A stretch of DNA of 64,000 bases, taken from assembly GCF_002854065.1 (NCBI RefSeq), contig NZ_CP024147.1. One strand, 5' to 3'. This stretch comes from Escherichia coli (GTDB lineage: Bacteria; Pseudomonadota; Gammaproteobacteria; Enterobacterales; Enterobacteriaceae). Below, one piece after another: positions 1-15,792 of the stretch (its first letter is position 1; the number at the start of each line of letters is the position of its first letter). The notes under the pieces are model-generated. The model did no database searches. It was given only the letters and a program-made list of their open reading frames with translations, and was not told where the DNA came from. The position numbers were made by a program, and so were the translations under genes.

Positions 1-1
1 T

Positions 2-1369
2 ATTGATGGTCTGGGCGGTTTGTTCCTCGCCATTCTTGGTGTGATTGGCTTTCTCACCGGTGTTTACTCGATTGGCTACATGCGTCATGAAGTGGCACAC
101 GGCGAGCTTTCACCCGTTACGCTGTGCGATTACTACGGTTTCTTCCATCTGTTTTTGTTCACCATGCTGCTGGTTGTTACCAGCAATAACCTGATTGTGA
201 TGTGGGCGGCGATCGAAGCCACCACCTTAAGCTCGGCGTTTCTGGTAGGCATTTACGGTCAGCGTTCATCGCTGGAAGCAGCATGGAAGTACATCATTAT
301 TTGTACTGTTGGTGTCGCTTTTGGTCTGTTCGGTACCGTGCTGGTATACGCCAACGCCGCCAGCGTTATGCCGCAGGCAGAAATGGCGATATTCTGGAGC
401 GAGGTTCTTAAGCAATCGTCCTTGCTTGACCCAACATTAATGCTGTTGGCCTTTGTGTTTGTGCTAATTGGCTTTGGCACTAAAACCGGGCTATTCCCCA
501 TGCACGCCTGGCTGCCAGATGCTCACAGTGAAGCGCCGAGTCCGGTCAGCGCCCTGCTCTCCGCCGTATTGCTGAACTGCGCGCTGTTGGTGCTTATTCG
601 CTATTACATCATTATTTGCCAGGCCATCGGCAGCGATTTCCCCAACCGGTTATTGCTCATCTTCGGCATGTTGTCGGTTGCCGTGGCGGCATTTTTCATT
701 CTGGTACAGCGGGACATTAAGCGTCTGCTGGCGTACTCCAGCGTGGAGAACATGGGACTGGTCGCGGTGGCGTTAGGCATTGGCGGGCCGCTGGGAATTT
801 TTGCCGCGCTGCTGCACACCTTAAACCACAGTCTGGCAAAAACGCTGCTGTTCTGCGGTTCCGGCAATGTACTGCTCAAGTACGGCACACGCGATCTCAA
901 CGTCGTCTGTGGGATGCTCAAAATCATGCCATTTACCGCCGTGCTGTTTGGCGGCGGTGCGCTGGCGCTGGCAGGGATGCCGCCCTTCAACATTTTTCTT
1001 AGCGAATTTATGACCGTTACCGCCGGACTGGCACGTAATCATCTGCTGATTATCGTCCTGCTGTTATTGCTGTTAACGCTGGTGCTGGCGGGCCTGGTAC
1101 GGATGGCTGCGCGGGTGTTAATGGCGAAACCGCCGCAGGCCGTTAACCGGGGTGATCTCGGCTGGTTGACCACCTCGCCAATGGTGATTCTGCTGGTCAT
1201 GATGCTGGCGATGGGAACGCATATTCCACAACCTGTCATCAGGATCCTGGCGGGCGCTTCCACTATAGTCCTCTCAGGGACGCACGACCTGCCTGCACAA
1301 CGTAGCACCTGGCATGATTTTTTGCCTTCAGGCACCGCATCTGTTTCGGAGAAACACAGTGAACGTTAA
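2..1369 (+). CDS. hyfF: Hydrogenase-4 membrane subunit HyfF (NuoL/M/N-like antiporter subunit), 5'-truncated by window edge
   Basis: Open frame from the window start, 449 aa of polytopic membrane protein; followed by the hyfGHIJR-focB gene order. Confidence 0.85.
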
Positions 1370-3074
1370 TTCATCGTCAAATCGTGGCGAAGCGATTCTC
1401 GCCGCCCTGAAAACGCAGTTCCCCGGCGCGGTGCTGGATGAAGAGCGACAAACGCCTGAACAGGTCACCATTACGGTGAAAATCAATCTGCTGCCTGACG
1501 TTGTACAGTATCTTTATTATCAACATGATGGCTGGCTTCCGGTCCTGTTTGGCAACGACGAGCGGACACTTAACGGTCATTACGCGGTTTATTATGCCCT
1601 TTCTATGGAAGGGGCCGAAAAATGCTGGATCGTGGTGAAGGCACTGGTCGATGCCGACAGTCGGGAGTTTCCGTCAGTCACACCGCGCGTCCCTGCCGCG
1701 GTCTGGGGCGAGCGAGAAATTCGCGATATGTACGGGCTGATTCCGGTTGGCCTGCCGGATCAGCGTCGCCTGGTGTTGCCCGATGACTGGCCGGAAGATA
1801 TGCATCCGCTGCGCAAAGATGCGATGGATTATCGACTGCGCCCTGAACCGACGACTGATTCCGAAACGTATCCGTTTATCAATAAGGGCAACAGCGATGC
1901 GCGGGTGATCCCTGTCGGCCCGCTGCATATCACCTCCGATGAACCGGGTCACTTCCGCTTGTTTGTGGATGGCGAGCAAATTGTCGATGCTGATTACCGC
2001 CTGTTTTATGTCCATCGCGGCATGGAGAAACTGGCAGAAACGCGGATGGGCTACAACGAAGTGACCTTCTTATCGGACCGCGTGTGTGGGATTTGCGGTT
2101 TTGCCCACAGTGTGGCCTATACCAACTCGGTTGAAAATGCACTGAGGATTGAGGTGCCGCAACGAGCGCATACCATTCGCTCGATTCTGCTGGAAGTCGA
2201 ACGGTTACACAGTCATTTGCTCAACCTTGGCCTCTCCTGCCATTTTGTTGGTTTTGATACCGGCTTTATGCAATTTTTCCGCGTGCGGGAAAAGTCGATG
2301 ACAATGGCGGAATTGCTGACCGGGTCGCGTAAAACCTACGGTCTGAATCTGATTGGTGGTGTTCGCCGCGATATTCTCAAAGAGCAACGTCTGCAAACGC
2401 TGAAACTGGTGCGCGAGATGCGCGCCGACGTGTCGGAGCTGGTAGAAATGCTGCTTGCCACGCCGAATATGGAACAACGCACTCAGGGCATTGGCATTCT
2501 CGACCGACAAATCGCCCGTGATTATAGCCCTGTAGGGCCGCTGATCCGCGGCAGTGGTTTTGCCCGTGATTTGCGCTTTGATCACCCCTACGCCGACTAC
2601 GGCAATATTCCAAAAACACTGTTTACCTTCACCGGCGGCGATGTTTTCTCCCGCGTGATGGTCCGTGTCAAAGAGACGTTTGATTCGCTGGCAATGCTGG
2701 AATTTGCTCTCGACAACATGCCGGATACCCCACTGCTGACCGAAGGCTTTAGCTATAAACCTCACGCATTCGCGCTCGGCTTTGTTGAAGCGCCACGCGG
2801 TGAAGACGTGCACTGGAGCATGCTCGGTGATAACCAAAAATTGTTCCGCTGGCGCTGTCGTGCCGCCACCTACGCCAACTGGCCGGTGCTGCGTTACATG
2901 CTACGCGGCAATACCGTTTCTGACGCACCGCTGATTATCGGTAGCCTTGATCCCTGCTACTCCTGTACCGACCGTGTGACGCTGGTTGATGTGCGCAAGC
3001 GCCAGTCAAAAACCGTGCCGTATAAAGAGATCGAACGCTACGGCATTGATCGTAACCGTTCGCCGCTGAAGTAA
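1359..3074 (+). CDS. hyfG: Hydrogenase-4 large (NiFe) subunit HyfG
   Basis: ORF 1314..3074; likely GTG start at 1359 preceded by GGAG; N-terminal RxC...C and C-terminal DPCxxC Ni-Fe ligand motifs ([17 protein letters not shown]); start position uncertain. Confidence 0.85.
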
Positions 3075-3083
3075 GGACAGAAG

Positions 3084-3629
3084 ATGCTGAAGTTACTGAA
3101 AACTATTATGCGCGCCGGAACCGCGACGGTGAAATATCCCTTCGCGCCACTGGAGGTCAGCCCAGGCTTTCGCGGGAAACCGGACCTGATGCCCAGCCAA
3201 TGTATTGCCTGCGGTGCCTGCGCCTGTGCTTGTCCGGCAAATGCGCTGACTATCCAGACCGACGACCAGCAAAATTCGCGCACCTGGCAGCTCTATCTGG
3301 GGCGTTGTATTTACTGCGGACGTTGTGAAGAAGTGTGCCCGACCAGAGCCATCCAGCTTACCAATAACTTTGAACTGACCGTCACCAATAAAGCCGATCT
3401 CTATACCCGCGCGACGTTCCATCTACAACGTTGCAGCCGTTGCGAACGCCCGTTTGCCCCGCAAAAAACCGTCGCACTGGCTGCTGAATTGTTGGCACAG
3501 CAACAAAATGCGCCACAAAACCGCGAAATGTTGCGGGCGCAAGCGAGCGTCTGCCCGGAGTGCAAACAACGCGCGACGCTGATCAACGACGATACAGATG
3601 TACCGCTGGTGGCTAAGGAGCAGCTATGA
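3084..3629 (+). CDS. hyfH: Hydrogenase-4 ferredoxin-type subunit HyfH (2x[4Fe-4S])
   Basis: 181 aa with two CxxCxxCxxxCP motifs; SD AAGGA upstream. Confidence 0.9.
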
Positions 3630-4384
3630 GTCCAGTGCTTACACAACATGTCAGCCAGCCCATCACGCTAGACGAGCAAACGCAAAAGATGAAGCGGCAT
3701 TTGCTACAGGATATCCGTCGCTCAGCCTACGTTTATCGCGTCGATTGCGGCGGCTGCAACGCCTGTGAAATCGAAATTTTTGCCGCCATCACACCAGTAT
3801 TCGACGCAGAACGTTTTGGCATTAAGGTTGTTTCATCACCGCGTCACGCCGATATTTTGTTATTTACTGGCGCAGTCACCCGGGCGATGCGTATGCCTGC
3901 ACTTCGGGCGTATGAGTCTGCCCCCGATCATAAAATCTGTGTTTCCTACGGCGCGTGCGGTGTCGGCGGCGGTATTTTCCACGATCTCTACAGCGTCTGG
4001 GGCGGCAGCGACACCATTGTCCCCATTGATGTTTGGATCCCCGGCTGCCCGCCAACACCGGCCGCCACCATTCACGGTTTCGCCGTGGCGCTCGGTTTGC
4101 TGCAACAGAAGATTCACGCGGTGGATTATCGCGATCCCACCGGGGTGACTATGCAACCGCTGTGGCCGCAGATCCCGCCATCACAGCGTATCGCCGTTGA
4201 GCGAGAAGCGCGGCGGCTGGCGGGCTATCGTCAGGGGCGAGAAATTTGCGATCGTCTCCTGCGCCATTTAAGCGATGATCCTACAGGAAATCGGGTTAAC
4301 ACCTGGTTGCGCGAAGCCGACGATCCGCGTCTCAATAGTATCGTTCAGCAACTCTTTCGCGTACTCCGGGGGTTACATGACTGA
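3626..4384 (+). CDS. hyfI: Hydrogenase-4 small subunit HyfI (NuoB-like)
   Basis: 252 aa; start overlaps hyfH stop (ATGA); CGGC..GCPP motifs. Confidence 0.9.
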
Positions 4385-4790
4385 AGAGTGCGGGGAAATT
4401 GTTTTCTGGACGCTGCGAAAAAAGTTTGTCGCCAGTAGCGACGAGATGCCGGAACACAGCTCTCAGGTAATGTATTACTCACTGGCTATCGGTCATCACG
4501 TTGGCGTGATTGATTGTCTGAATGTCGCCTTCCGCTGCCCACTGACGGAATACGAAGATTGGCTTGCACTGGTCGAAGAGGAGCAAGCCCGACGTAAGAT
4601 GCTGGGGGTGATGACTTTTGGTGAGATTGTTATTGACACCAGCCACACCGCCCTGTTGACCCGGGCATTCGCGCCACTGGCGGATGACGCGACGTCTGTG
4701 TGGCAGGCGCGTAGCATTCAATTCATTCATCTGTTGGATGAAATTGTGCAGGAACCGGCCATCTATCTGATGGCCAGAAAAATTGCGTGA
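4377..4790 (+). CDS. hyfJ: Hydrogenase-4 component HyfJ (HycH-like maturation factor)
   Basis: ATG at 4377 overlapping hyfI stop gives 137 aa ([11 protein letters not shown]...); the longer 171 aa ORF is a read-through extension. Confidence 0.85.
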
Positions 4791-4819
4791 GAAGGATTTC
4801 TCATTAATAAGGACTGTTG

Positions 4820-6832
4820 ATGGCTATGTCAGACGAGGCGATGTTTGCCCCGCCACAAGGAATAACAATTGAAGCGGTAAACGGAATGCTCGCGGAGCGG
4901 TTAGCACAGAAACACGGCAAGGCGTCTTTATTACGCGCCTTCATCCCGCTGCCGCCGCCGTTCAGCCCGGTACAACTTATTGAACTGCATGTTCTCAAAA
5001 GCAACTTCTATTACCGCTACCATGATGATGGCAGCGATGTGACGGCAACAGTAGAGTATCAGGGCGAGATGGTCGATTATTCGCGTCACGCCGTCCTTCT
5101 CGGCAGTAGAGGAATGGCGGAGCTACGCTTTATACGTACCCACGGCAGCCGTTTTACTCCCCAGGATTGCACACTGTTTAACTGGCTGGCACGCATTATC
5201 ACCCCGGTTCTGCAATCATGGCTCAATGATGAAGAACAACAGGTGGCGCTGCGTTTGCTGAAGAAAGATTGCGATCATCATCGGGTACTGGTGGATATCA
5301 CTAATGCAGTGCTGTCACATCTTGATCTCGACGATCTGATCGCTGACGTCGCTCGTGAGATCCATCATTTTTTCGGTCTGGCTTCAGTCAGTATGGTACT
5401 GGGCGATCATCGAAAGAACGAGAAGTTCAGCCTGTGGTGCAGCGATCTTTCTGCCTCACATTGTGCGTGTCTGCCACGCAATATGCCTGGCGACAGTGTA
5501 TTGCTGACACAAACGCTACAAACCCGACAACCGACCTTGACGCACCGTGCAGACGATCTGTTTCTCTGGCAACGCGACCCGTTATTACACTTACTTGCAT
5601 CTAACGGCTGCGAATCTGCGCTCCTTATACCGCTTACCTTTGGCAACCATACACCGGGTGCATTGTTGCTGGCGCATACCTCTTCCACTCTCTTTAGTGA
5701 GGAAAACTGCCAGCTACTACAACACATAGCCGATCGCATCGCTATTGCCGTTGGCAATGCCGATGCCTGGCGTAGCATGACCGATTTGCAGGAAAGTTTG
5801 CAGCAAGAAAACCACCAGCTTAGCGAGCAGCTCCTTTCGAATCTGGGCGTCGGTGACATTATCTATCAAAGCCAGGCAATGGAAGACCTGCTCCAGCAGG
5901 TAGATATTGTGGCGAGGAGCGACAGTACGGTGTTGATTTGCGGTGAAACCGGAACTGGCAAAGAGGTGATCGCCAGAGCGATCCATCAACTTAGCCCGCG
6001 ACGCGACAAGCCGCTGGTCAAAATCAACTGCGCTGCCATCCCCGCCAGTCTTCTGGAAAGTGAGTTATTCGGTCATGACAAAGGGGCGTTTACTGGTGCG
6101 ATTAATACCCATCGTGGTCGTTTTGAAATTGCCGATGGCGGCACGTTGTTTCTCGATGAAATTGGCGATCTGCCGTTAGAACTTCAGCCTAAACTGCTGC
6201 GCGTATTGCAGGAGCGGGAGATTGAGCGTCTCGGCGGGAGTAGAACGATCCCGGTGAATGTCAGAGTCATTGCCGCCACCAACCGTGATTTGTGGCAAAT
6301 GGTTGAAGATCGCCAGTTTCGCAGCGATCTCTTTTATCGCCTGAATGTCTTCCCACTGGAATTGCCGCCGCTACGCGACCGTCCGGAAGATATCCCTCTT
6401 TTAGCAAAACATTTCACGCAAAAAATGGCGCGCCATATGAATCGCGCAATTGACGCCATCCCGACCGAGGCACTACGCCAGTTGATGTCGTGGGATTGGC
6501 CGGGCAACGTGCGCGAGCTGGAAAACGTGATTGAGCGGGCGGTACTGCTGACTCGCGGTAACAGTCTGAATTTACATCTAAATGTCCGACAAAGCCGTTT
6601 ACTGCCGACGCTAAATGAAGATTCAGCGCTTCGCAGTTCAATGGCGCAGTTGCTGCACCCGACGACGCCAGAGAATGACGAAGAAGAACGTCAGCGCATT
6701 GTTCAGGTATTGCGAGAAACCAATGGCATTGTTGCCGGGCCCCGTGGCGCGGCGACACGATTAGGGATGAAGCGCACCACGCTGCTGTCACGAATGCAGC
6801 GTCTGGGGATCTCGGTTCGCGAGGTGTTGTAA
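4820..6832 (+). CDS. hyfR: Sigma-54-dependent transcriptional activator HyfR (FhlA-like)
   Basis: 670 aa from second Met; AAA+ sigma-54 interaction motifs ([14 protein letters not shown]) and C-terminal HTH. Confidence 0.9.
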
Positions 6833-10994: not shown

Positions 10995-11696
10995 CTACAA
11001 CTTCAGAATTTCTTTCACAAACGGAATGGTCAGCTTACGTTGCGCGGTAATCGACGCACGATCCAACTGATCCAACGTCATAAATAGCGTGCGCATTTCT
11101 CTGTCGAGCCGCTTCAGCAAGAAACGCCCAACATCTTCCGGCAGTTCAAAACCACGCAAACGCGCGCGTAACTGTAGCGCCTGCAACTTATCTTCATCAG
11201 AAAGTGGCTGCAATTTGTAGATCTGCCCCCAGTCGAGTCGCGACGCGAGATCCGGTAATCCCAGATTCAACTGCCGCGGTGGACGATCGCCGGTGATCAA
11301 CAACCGTGTTTTGCCCGATTCCAGAATTCGATTGTAGAGATCGAAAATCGCCATCTCCCACAACTCATCGCCTGCAATACACTCAATGTTGTCGATACAG
11401 ACCAGCGACAAATGCTCCATACCGTCGAGCACTTCCGGAACAAACCAGGTGCGTTTATCCAGCGGGACATAGCCCACCGCATCGCCACGCTGCGACAATT
11501 CCGCGCAAGCCGCGTGCAGCAGATGGCTGCGCCCCGCGCCTTCGCGTGCCCAGAGATAGATGTAACCGCTATGTTCCTGACGCAGCACGTTTTGCAGCGC
11601 GGCCAGTAAAGAGGAGTTATCCCCCGGCCAGAAACTTGCAAAGGTTTCGTCGTCAGGAAGATAAAGTGGCAAAGAGAGCTGTGCCGGTGTGTTCAG
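10995..11696 (-). CDS. hda: DnaA-inactivating protein Hda (RIDA factor)
   Basis: ATG-initiated ORF 10995..11741 (248 aa); the functional protein is reported to start at an internal CUG (here codon ending at 11696) giving 233 aa; AAA+ motifs present. Confidence 0.85.
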
Positions 11697-11790
11697 AGAT
11701 ACCTCAACCAGGATTTCACAAAATCGCGAGAAGTTTACCACAGAATCCCATGATGTTTGAACCGGGCAGCAACACTGCCCGGTCGGTACA

Positions 11791-14098: not shown

Positions 14099-15153
<1,055 letters not shown>

Positions 15154-15154
<1 letters not shown>

Positions 15155-15792
15155 TGAATATTGTGGTGCTTATTTCCGGCAACGGAAGTAATTTACAGGC
15201 AATTATTGACGCCTGTAAAACCAACAAAATTAAAGGCACCGTACGGGCAGTTTTCAGCAATAAGGCCGACGCGTTCGGCCTTGAACGCGCCCGCCAGGCG
15301 GGTATTGCAACGCATACGCTCATCGCCAGCGCGTTTGACAGTCGTGAAGCCTATGACCGGGAGTTGATTCATGAAATCGACATGTACGCACCCGATGTGG
15401 TCGTGCTGGCTGGTTTTATGCGCATTCTCAGCCCGGCGTTTGTCTCCCACTATGCCGGGCGTTTGCTGAACATTCACCCTTCTCTGCTGCCGAAATATCC
15501 CGGATTACACACCCATCGTCAGGCGCTGGAAAATGGCGATGAAGAGCACGGTACATCGGTGCATTTCGTCACCGATGAACTGGACGGTGGCCCGGTTATT
15601 TTACAGGCGAAAGTCCCGGTATTTGCTGGTGATACGGAAGATGACGTCACCGCCCGCGTGCAAACCCAGGAACACGCCATTTATCCACTGGTGATTAGCT
15701 GGTTTGCCGATGGTCGTCTGAAAATGCACGAAAACGCCGCGTGGCTGGATGGTCAACGTCTGCCGCCGCAGGGCTACGCTGCCGACGAGTAA
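15154..15792 (+). CDS. purN: Phosphoribosylglycinamide formyltransferase PurN
   Basis: 212 aa; start overlaps purM stop (TAATG). Confidence 0.9.

Follow-up and report, generated by a model that had tools for sequence, protein, structure and literature searches.

Neighbouring genes in the distal hyf cluster of Escherichia coli and in purMN overlap by a few nucleotides at their stop and start codons. This raises the question of whether these overlaps are true gene boundaries and, if so, whether translation is coupled across them. The window, a 64,000-nt stretch of E. coli DNA, opens inside hyfF, and all features described here lie on its plus strand. The 3′ part of hyfF (2–1369; stop TAA at 1367–1369; open reading frame (ORF) list and annotation) is followed by hyfG (1359–3074; 571 aa, GTG start), identified by sequence, annotation and homology as the large subunit gene of [NiFe]-hydrogenase-4. 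HyfG is homologous to HycE over its full length (72% identity, including the C-terminal DPCYSCTDR motif), and its residues 7–571 match the solved HycE chain 7z0s_E (E = 2e-291). The ORF list and K-12 annotation then place hyfH (3084–3629; 181 aa) and hyfI (3626–4384; 252 aa, hydrogenase small subunit). They are followed by hyfJ (4377–4790; 137 aa), a HycH-like assembly chaperone gene by its sequence, K-12 annotation and relatives. K-12, a near-identical annotated strain and tblastn mapping all gave the gene order hyfF-G-H-I-J-R-focB, with the gene for the antiporter-like HyfF directly 5′ of hyfG. With K-12 starts kept, purM (14117–15154; 345 aa, GTG start at 14117; sequence, K-12 and PGAP annotation) is followed at once by purN (15154–15792; 212 aa; ORF list, K-12 annotation). 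The longest purM ORF opens at GTG 14102, which differs from the annotated start at 14117. Both hyfA-focB and purMN are treated as operons in the literature, and purMN is PurR-regulated. The gaps and overlaps appear too tight to hold a terminator and a promoter, which would fit a single transcript.

A script check found the four overlaps of the first-pass annotation to be exact in coordinates and bases. The hyfG GTG (1359–1361) begins 11 nt inside hyfF, giving an 11-nt overlap (GTGAACGTTAA; 1359–1369). hyfH and hyfI share ATGA (3626–3629), hyfI and hyfJ overlap by 8 nt (ATGACTGA; 4377–4384), and purM and purN overlap by 1 nt within TAATG (15152–15156). We observed that the Shine-Dalgarno (SD) sites of the three overlapping hyf starts lie within the upstream genes. 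The hyfG site, GGAGA (1348–1352), is inside hyfF and ends 6 nt before the GTG (anti-SD duplex −6.6 kcal/mol); its GGAG core (1348–1351) has a 7-nt spacer, and the motif is kept in all examined Enterobacterales hyf loci. The hyfI site, AAGGAG (3615–3620; −8.3 kcal/mol), is inside hyfH, and an SD-like GGGGGT (4368–4373; −9.2 kcal/mol) precedes hyfJ inside hyfI. SD duplexes at annotated starts of −5.8 to −9.2 kcal/mol rank in the top 0.4–6% of random window positions. The purN site is weak: its −2.2 kcal/mol hardly departs from the background mean, −1.7. Of 4294 E. coli genomes that carry hyf, 4245 had the hyfF/hyfG junction (1325–1395; 71 nt) at 99% identity or more, which here means an exact match.

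The overlaps are very probably the true boundaries of the distal hyf genes and of purMN, with termination-reinitiation as the most likely mechanism of coupling. Each downstream start overlaps the upstream gene by 1 to 11 nt, with its SD within that gene. A ribosome finishing hyfF, hyfH, hyfI or purM would remain on the mRNA and restart at the adjoining start codon, so that output of the downstream gene would track that of the upstream gene. Coupling at hyfH-hyfI has been shown in dual-reporter constructs carrying the fragment in a heterologous setting (Huber et al. 2019, 2023; PMC6728339, PMC10666635). In that work, early termination upstream made downstream translation extremely low or undetectable, a −99 to +30 fragment was enough for coupling, and reinitiation fell by 80–90% at a distance of +38 nt. 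Three further pairs in those studies (astDB, ydbH/ynbE and menDH) are reinitiation-coupled as well. The remaining window junctions have in common with them a short overlap and an SD inside the upstream gene; the −8 and −11 overlaps and the GTG start of hyfF/G were not among the pairs studied. At hyfF/G, hyfI/J and purM/N, coupling is a reasonable inference. A literature search found no coupling experiments on purMN and no data on the dependence of hyfG, hyfJ or purN on upstream translation. The near absence of an SD at purN fits dependence on purM translation, and the strong SDs at hyfG, hyfI and hyfJ are compatible with independent initiation too. The ribosome-profiling check suggested in the first-pass annotation would probably tell little about hyf, since this operon is apparently neither transcribed nor active in laboratory conditions (PMC7654741).

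Of the alternatives, coupling through RNA unfolding survives best, although we consider it unlikely. Here a ribosome translating the upstream gene would act by opening structure at the downstream start. Stable double-stranded structure has been predicted in or close to the initiation region of hyfHI (Huber et al. 2019, PMC6728339), and our own minimum-free-energy fold of hyfH/I pairs the AUG within a hairpin that carries the SD in its loop. A 2025 review holds the unfolding and reinitiation models both open and not mutually exclusive. However, when we folded −99 to +30 around each start, we did not observe any unusual start-occluding structure. The junction fragments were no stabler than dinucleotide shuffles (z = −0.2 to +0.9), and accessibility from SD to start was ordinary, ranking between the 20th and 78th percentiles of the operon background. 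These folding results neither support nor exclude the unfolding model. The steep loss of coupling with tens of nucleotides of extra distance argues for reinitiation.

Less probable still is a by-product view, in which genome compactness and stop-codon drift produced the overlaps, each downstream gene is initiated de novo on its own SD and coupling is negligible. The duplex energies at hyfG, hyfI and hyfJ would allow this. Among relatives the hyfF stop shifts while the SD and GTG stay constant, so that in E. coli a displaced stop seems to account for the 11-nt overlap. Of the five overlapping E. coli pairs tested, one was uncoupled, namely bioBF, which is also an ATGA pair. Overlaps of this kind are ordinary, as the first-pass annotation had said: 24% of unidirectional pairs genome-wide in E. 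coli lie within −8 to +6 nt, with overlaps of −4, −1 and −8 the most frequent (PMC10666635). The annotation of the near-identical strain, which spans approximately the first 49 kb of the window, has 28 adjacent pairs on the same strand, and the four described here are the only ones that overlap. Against de novo initiation stand its near-undetectable level at hyfHI after an early upstream stop and the lack of a usable SD at purN.

The comparison across taxa bears on the by-product view from both sides. With starts assigned by a heuristic of ours that combines SD strength with homology offset, in place of curated annotation, the HyfH/I-type junction overlapped in 46 of 51 loci, the HyfI/J type in 36 of 43 and the HycH/I type in 32 of 40. 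The hyfF/G junction was tight (−4 to +3) in 9 of 16 other taxa, spanned −11 to +25 overall, and had the 11-nt overlap only in E. coli. Overlap lengths at homologous junctions differ by taxon (−1, −4, −8, −11, −14), as expected for by-products, so the exact junction geometry is not conserved. However, tight junctions recur at the same three positions in dozens of genera, and two other positions never overlap, one of them being hycD-to-hycE (0 of 21 loci). It is this position-specific conservation of overlaps across taxa that goes beyond chance.

We also assessed the start codons, which the overlaps help to fix according to the first-pass annotation. Curated K-12 annotation (NC_000913.3) uses the equivalents of GTG 1359, ATG 3626, ATG 4377 and ATG 15154, and PGAP annotation of the near-identical strain has the same starts at all four overlaps. 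For hyfG the GTG, and for hyfJ the ATG, are backed by related operons from ~55 other taxa. An in-frame stop just 5′ makes the GTG the sole possible hyfG start in several Enterobacterales, and hyf loci of this order keep GGAG-N(6-9)-GTG at hyfG. In-frame stops also occur just 5′ of the hyfJ/hycH ATG in relatives, and Met1 of HycE aligns to the N-terminus of HyfG when HyfG begins at GTG 1359. No in-frame ATG, GTG or TTG was listed within ~15 codons 3′ of 1359; by manual reading of the sequence, the next candidate is a GTG at codon 25, which falls past residues invariant between HyfG and HycE (G10, L14–L17 and F21–G23). It is thus very improbable that starts are mis-assigned (hyfG to ATG 1314–1316 or a downstream codon, hyfJ to ATG 4275–4277) and the overlaps annotation artefacts: the longer ORFs exist in the window (1314–3074, 586 aa; 4275–4790, 171 aa), but neither ATG has an SD (+0.6 and +1.9 kcal/mol, respectively), both extensions are unconserved with in-frame stops in relatives, and the ATG at 4275 is near-private, with K-12 reading ACG and a single one of 4118 genomes giving an exact match to the surrounding 65 nt. 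Annotation and comparative evidence together show the gene boundaries and starts, the comparative data rule out ATG 1314 and ATG 4275, and the preference for 4377 over 4275 as the hyfJ start is fully borne out.

The proposal of coupling through hyfF-G-H-I-J implies an unbroken chain, although the first-pass annotation listed no overlap at hyfG-hyfH. It stands at hyfH-hyfI, where the published dual reporters bear it out, and is interrupted at hyfG-hyfH. There, the script check found the hyfG stop TAA (3072–3074), a 9-nt gap (the two together spanning 3072–3083) and the hyfH ATG at 3084, with no overlap. The hyfH SD, AAGGA (3073–3077), begins within the hyfG stop codon. The junction from the large subunit gene to hyfH overlapped in 0 of 57 homologous loci and had a positive gap in all 57. 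The chain is therefore broken at G/H. Pairs spaced +9 to +12 are probably independently initiated (Huber et al. 2023, PMC10666635), and hyfH would more likely have its own initiation or weak coupling. Across hyf and hyc, three junctions nearly always overlap and the one after the large subunit gene never does, which suggests a conserved break in the coupling chain. The rationale that overlapping genes encode stoichiometric complexes applies to part of the set; it does not extend to HyfJ, an annotated assembly chaperone, or to PurM and PurN, which act at different pathway steps.

The K-12 MG1655 hyf genes (b2486–b2490, NC_000913.3) have the same geometry (F/G −11, G/H +9, H/I −4, I/J −8), with junction DNA 100% identical to the window at F/G and 99% at I/J. 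The K-12 hyc operon is similar: hycE/F (+9) resembles hyfG/H, hycF/G (−1) parallels hyfH/I, hycG/H (−4) parallels hyfI/J, and hycH/I overlaps by 8 nt. Unlike hyf, hyc has no hyfF equivalent 5′ of its large subunit gene, which has an ATG start and follows hycD at +17; E. coli hyf in turn lacks the hycI-type protease gene of hyc. K-12 purMN (b2499–b2500) has the same TAATG 1-nt overlap and the same starts; PurM and PurN catalyse steps 5 and 3 of their pathway as separate enzymes and are not known as subunits of a complex. The overlaps and starts are correct, match curated annotation and are already known. On their own they have little significance. They confirm curated starts, and published work has already put coupling at hyfH/I to the test. 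The comparative pattern of junctions and a length polymorphism in hyfG lend modest further value.

A separate observation concerns the length of hyfG. K-12, BL21 and about half of the hyf-carrying E. coli genomes have a 48-bp in-frame deletion in hyfG, giving 555 aa in K-12 compared to the full-length 571 aa in the window. The deletion sits between two 10-bp direct repeats (GCCCGTGATT). The 16 HyfG residues that it removes were present ungapped in 98 of 98 large-subunit homologues examined. Our AlphaFold2 model of the window HyfG, built from a 22-sequence alignment, had a mean pLDDT of 63 (~68–72 near residues 380–410); this confidence is low, and we therefore make no functional statement on the 16-residue segment. 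The passages searched in hydrogenase-4 papers did not mention the deletion, which may already be known from the older hyf literature. One tentative reading, which we hold to be possible and on balance doubtful, is that the window hyfG is ancestral and that the deletion is a main reason why hydrogenase-4 activity is undemonstrated in K-12, with full-length alleles possibly active. The usual candidates would otherwise be that hyf is poorly expressed or that the protease gene is missing. The polymorphism bears on why hydrogenase-4 seems inactive in laboratory E. coli.

We checked the gene boundaries by script and reproduced every coordinate given in the first-pass annotation. hyfG (1359-3074) begins with a GTG (1359-1361) 11 nt inside hyfF, whose TAA stop lies at 1367-1369. 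hyfH (3084-3629) and hyfI (3626-4384) share ATGA at 3626-3629, hyfI and hyfJ (4377-4790) overlap by 8 nt (ATGACTGA, 4377-4384), and purM (14117-15154) and purN (15154-15792) overlap by 1 nt within TAATG (15152-15156). Boundaries are those of the PGAP annotation of the near-identical strain CUWW06, which is colinear with the window up to ~30.3 kb. In this annotated part, 4/28 same-strand adjacent pairs overlap, and all four had been named, making the original list complete. hyfG and hyfH do not overlap: a 9-nt gap separates the hyfG stop (3072-3074) from the hyfH ATG (3084), and the hyfH Shine-Dalgarno (SD) sequence AAGGA begins within the hyfG TAA stop (window 3072-3084). Of the 11 junctions in the complete K-12 hyf operon, 4 overlap (hyfA/B −1, hyfF/G −11, hyfH/I −4, hyfI/J −8 nt), and the membrane-subunit genes are separated by small positive gaps.

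The start codons that had been fixed from these overlaps are correct. The curated K-12 record (NC_000913.3) has identical starts and geometry (hyfF/G −11, hyfG/H +9, hyfH/I −4, hyfI/J −8, purM/N −1). Anti-SD duplex energies were −6.6 kcal/mol at the hyfG GTG (1359), −5.8 kcal/mol for hyfH, −8.3 kcal/mol for hyfI and −9.2 kcal/mol at the hyfJ ATG (4377); random window positions had a mean of −1.7 kcal/mol, and only 0.4-6% of them reached the annotated-start values. Two longer candidates in the ORF list were rejected, namely hyfG from ATG 1314 (586 aa; +0.6 kcal/mol compared to −6.6 at GTG 1359) and hyfJ from ATG 4275 (171 aa; +1.9 kcal/mol compared to −9.2 at ATG 4377).

Met1 of HycE, the hydrogenase-3 counterpart of HyfG, aligns 3 residues inside the GTG-1359 N-terminus; invariant residues run from G10 on, and the alignment of HyfG with the solved HycE chain 7z0s_E starts at residue 7. 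We observed GGAG followed 6-9 nt on by a GTG start in every Enterobacterales hyf locus (Enterobacter, Pluralibacter, one further Enterobacteriaceae, Proteus, Morganella, Acerihabitans, Budvicia and Yersinia). Several of these have an in-frame stop just upstream that leaves GTG as the sole possible hyfG start. The GTG start thus occurs in E. coli and in 8/8 such loci (our scan loci L006, L018, L027, L076, L091, L102, L107 and L118); more distant taxa use ATG for hycE and hyfG. Relative to the fixed GTG, the hyfF stop shifts among the Enterobacterales hyf loci (−4, +1, +2, +25), making the 11-nt overlap the E. coli version of a junction that is conserved as tight. The overlap is fixed within the species, the 71-nt hyfF/hyfG junction being identical in 4245/4294 genomes. 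In relatives, the hyfJ/hycH ATG overlapping the stop before it is preceded at a short distance by in-frame stops. At 4275-4277 the window reads ATG but K-12 reads ACG, a synonymous change in hyfI, and the 65-nt hyfI stretch containing this ATG (4244-4308) has an exact match in only 1/4118 E. coli genomes. The long hyfJ ORF is therefore close to a private accident of the strain.

The first-pass annotation had also proposed translational coupling through hyfF-G-H-I-J and at purM-purN. This holds for hyfH-hyfI, where reporter data have been published, but the chain is broken at hyfG-hyfH by the +9 gap. With a fragment made up of the final 99 nt of hyfH plus the first 30 nt of hyfI placed between two reporters, an early upstream stop made downstream reporter translation undetectable or extremely low, and the authors concluded that the pair is strongly coupled by termination-reinitiation (Huber et al. 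2019, PMC6728339). Relocating the stop codon opened gaps of +2, +14 or +38 nt, and with the widest of these reinitiation fell by 80-90% in hyfH-hyfI and ydbH-ynbE and was abolished in menD-menH, the third of three pairs (Huber et al. 2023, PMC10666635). The same study describes a separate class of 203 E. coli pairs with gaps of +9 to +12 nt, in which an SD fits and initiation is probably independent. hyfG-hyfH falls in this class.

Judged from geometry and conservation, coupling is plausible at hyfF/hyfG, hyfI/hyfJ and purM/purN. At purM/purN the case is strengthened by the near-absence of an SD for purN (−2.2 kcal/mol), in keeping with dependence on purM translation. Folding of the junction fragments was unremarkable (z −0.2 to +0.9), with ordinary start-site accessibility and the hyfI AUG paired in the minimum-free-energy structure, and so does not separate reinitiation from RNA unfolding; a 2025 review regards both models as open. 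Because neither transcription nor activity of the hyf operon is apparent in laboratory conditions (PMC7654741), hyf start sites are unlikely to be revealed by ribosome profiling under standard conditions.

To compare junctions across taxa, one genome per species was scanned for DNA encoding DPCYSCTDR, yielding 120 loci on which Hyf and Hyc proteins were placed by tblastn. Starts were picked by SD strength and homology offset, with no term for overlaps, and the counts leave out the window, K-12 hyc, two loci with a near-K-12 hyc region and a second Collinsella locus. Overlaps were found at 46/51 HyfH/I-type junctions (−4 in 25, −1 in 20), 36/43 HyfI/J-type junctions (−14 to −1) and 32/40 HycH/I-type junctions (mostly −8, −4 and −1). 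Between the large subunit and HyfH/HycF there was none (0/57, mostly +9 to +12), nor between hycD and hycE (0/21, +9 to +80). hyfF and hyfG overlapped in 4/16 loci and lay within −4 to +3 in 9/16. The K-12 hyc paralogue repeats the hyf pattern (E/F +9, F/G −1, G/H −4, H/I −8). Tight junctions tied to particular positions in this way go far beyond the E. coli genome-wide rate, which puts 24% of unidirectional pairs within −8 to +6 nt (Huber et al. 2023, PMC10666635). Across L004-L123, a small positive gap at hyfG-hyfH or hycE-hycF was seen in 57/57 loci, and the next three junctions overlap almost always. The scan is dominated by Collinsella (Actinomycetota; including L007 and L050), whose hyf-type operons have a hyfF-like gene upstream of the large subunit, a hycI-like protease downstream, and gaps of +1 to +3 at junctions that overlap in Proteobacteria.

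Overall, the overlaps are known biology, and ordinary, as had been stated. The accompanying rationale, that they belong to operons for stoichiometric complexes, fits part of the set but neither HyfJ, which is annotated as an assembly chaperone and not a structural subunit, nor PurM and PurN, which are separate enzymes (purine synthesis steps 5 and 3, respectively).

HyfG is 571 aa in the window compared to 555 aa in K-12. K-12 hyfG lacks 48 bp, in frame, between 10-bp direct repeats (GCCCGTGATT; window 2514-2523 and 2562-2571, inside hyfG), which removes the 16 residues 386-401. Full-length hyfG is carried by 2179/4294 hyf-carrying complete E. coli genomes, including the O157:H7 strains listed. 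In the remaining 2115/4294, every sampled row shows a match spanning 108 rather than 156 nt, the shortening expected from the deletion; this form includes K-12, BL21 and an O111:H8 strain. The segment is ungapped in 98/98 large-subunit homologues from other taxa, so the deletion is the derived state. A386, R387, S390, V392, G393, P394, R397, S399 and G400 are invariant in a 22-sequence alignment. In none of 15 K-12 strains engineered to have strong promoters and hybrid C-termini was hydrogenase-4 activity seen (Finney et al. 2020). The hydrogenase-4 literature passages searched, a set outside which much older literature lies, do not mention the deletion. The deletion may bear on the unexplained hydrogenase-4 inactivity in K-12. 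The allele is widespread and otherwise intact, which argues for caution over terming the deletion inactivating.

The window is E. coli DNA, and two complete genomes match it at ~100% over positions 1-5000. The hyf region is present in 4294/5426 complete E. coli genomes and absent from 1132; only 337 reach 99% identity with the window over 1-5000, indicating that its hyf is a minority haplotype. Annotated starts also differ from the longest ORF elsewhere. For hda (minus strand, 10995-11741), the start in PGAP and in the K-12 record alike is CTG 11696, giving the shorter form (233 aa), and the longest ORF starts at GTG 11741 (248 aa). purM is annotated from GTG 14117 (SD −5.5 kcal/mol) vs. the longest-ORF GTG 14102 (−0.2 kcal/mol), and ppk from ATG 15963, its longest ORF starting at GTG 15957. 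At ~30300-30550, the window has ~830 bp fewer than CUWW06 inside a 6.4-kb adhesion-domain protein gene adjoining sinH, which may be a repeat copy-number difference.
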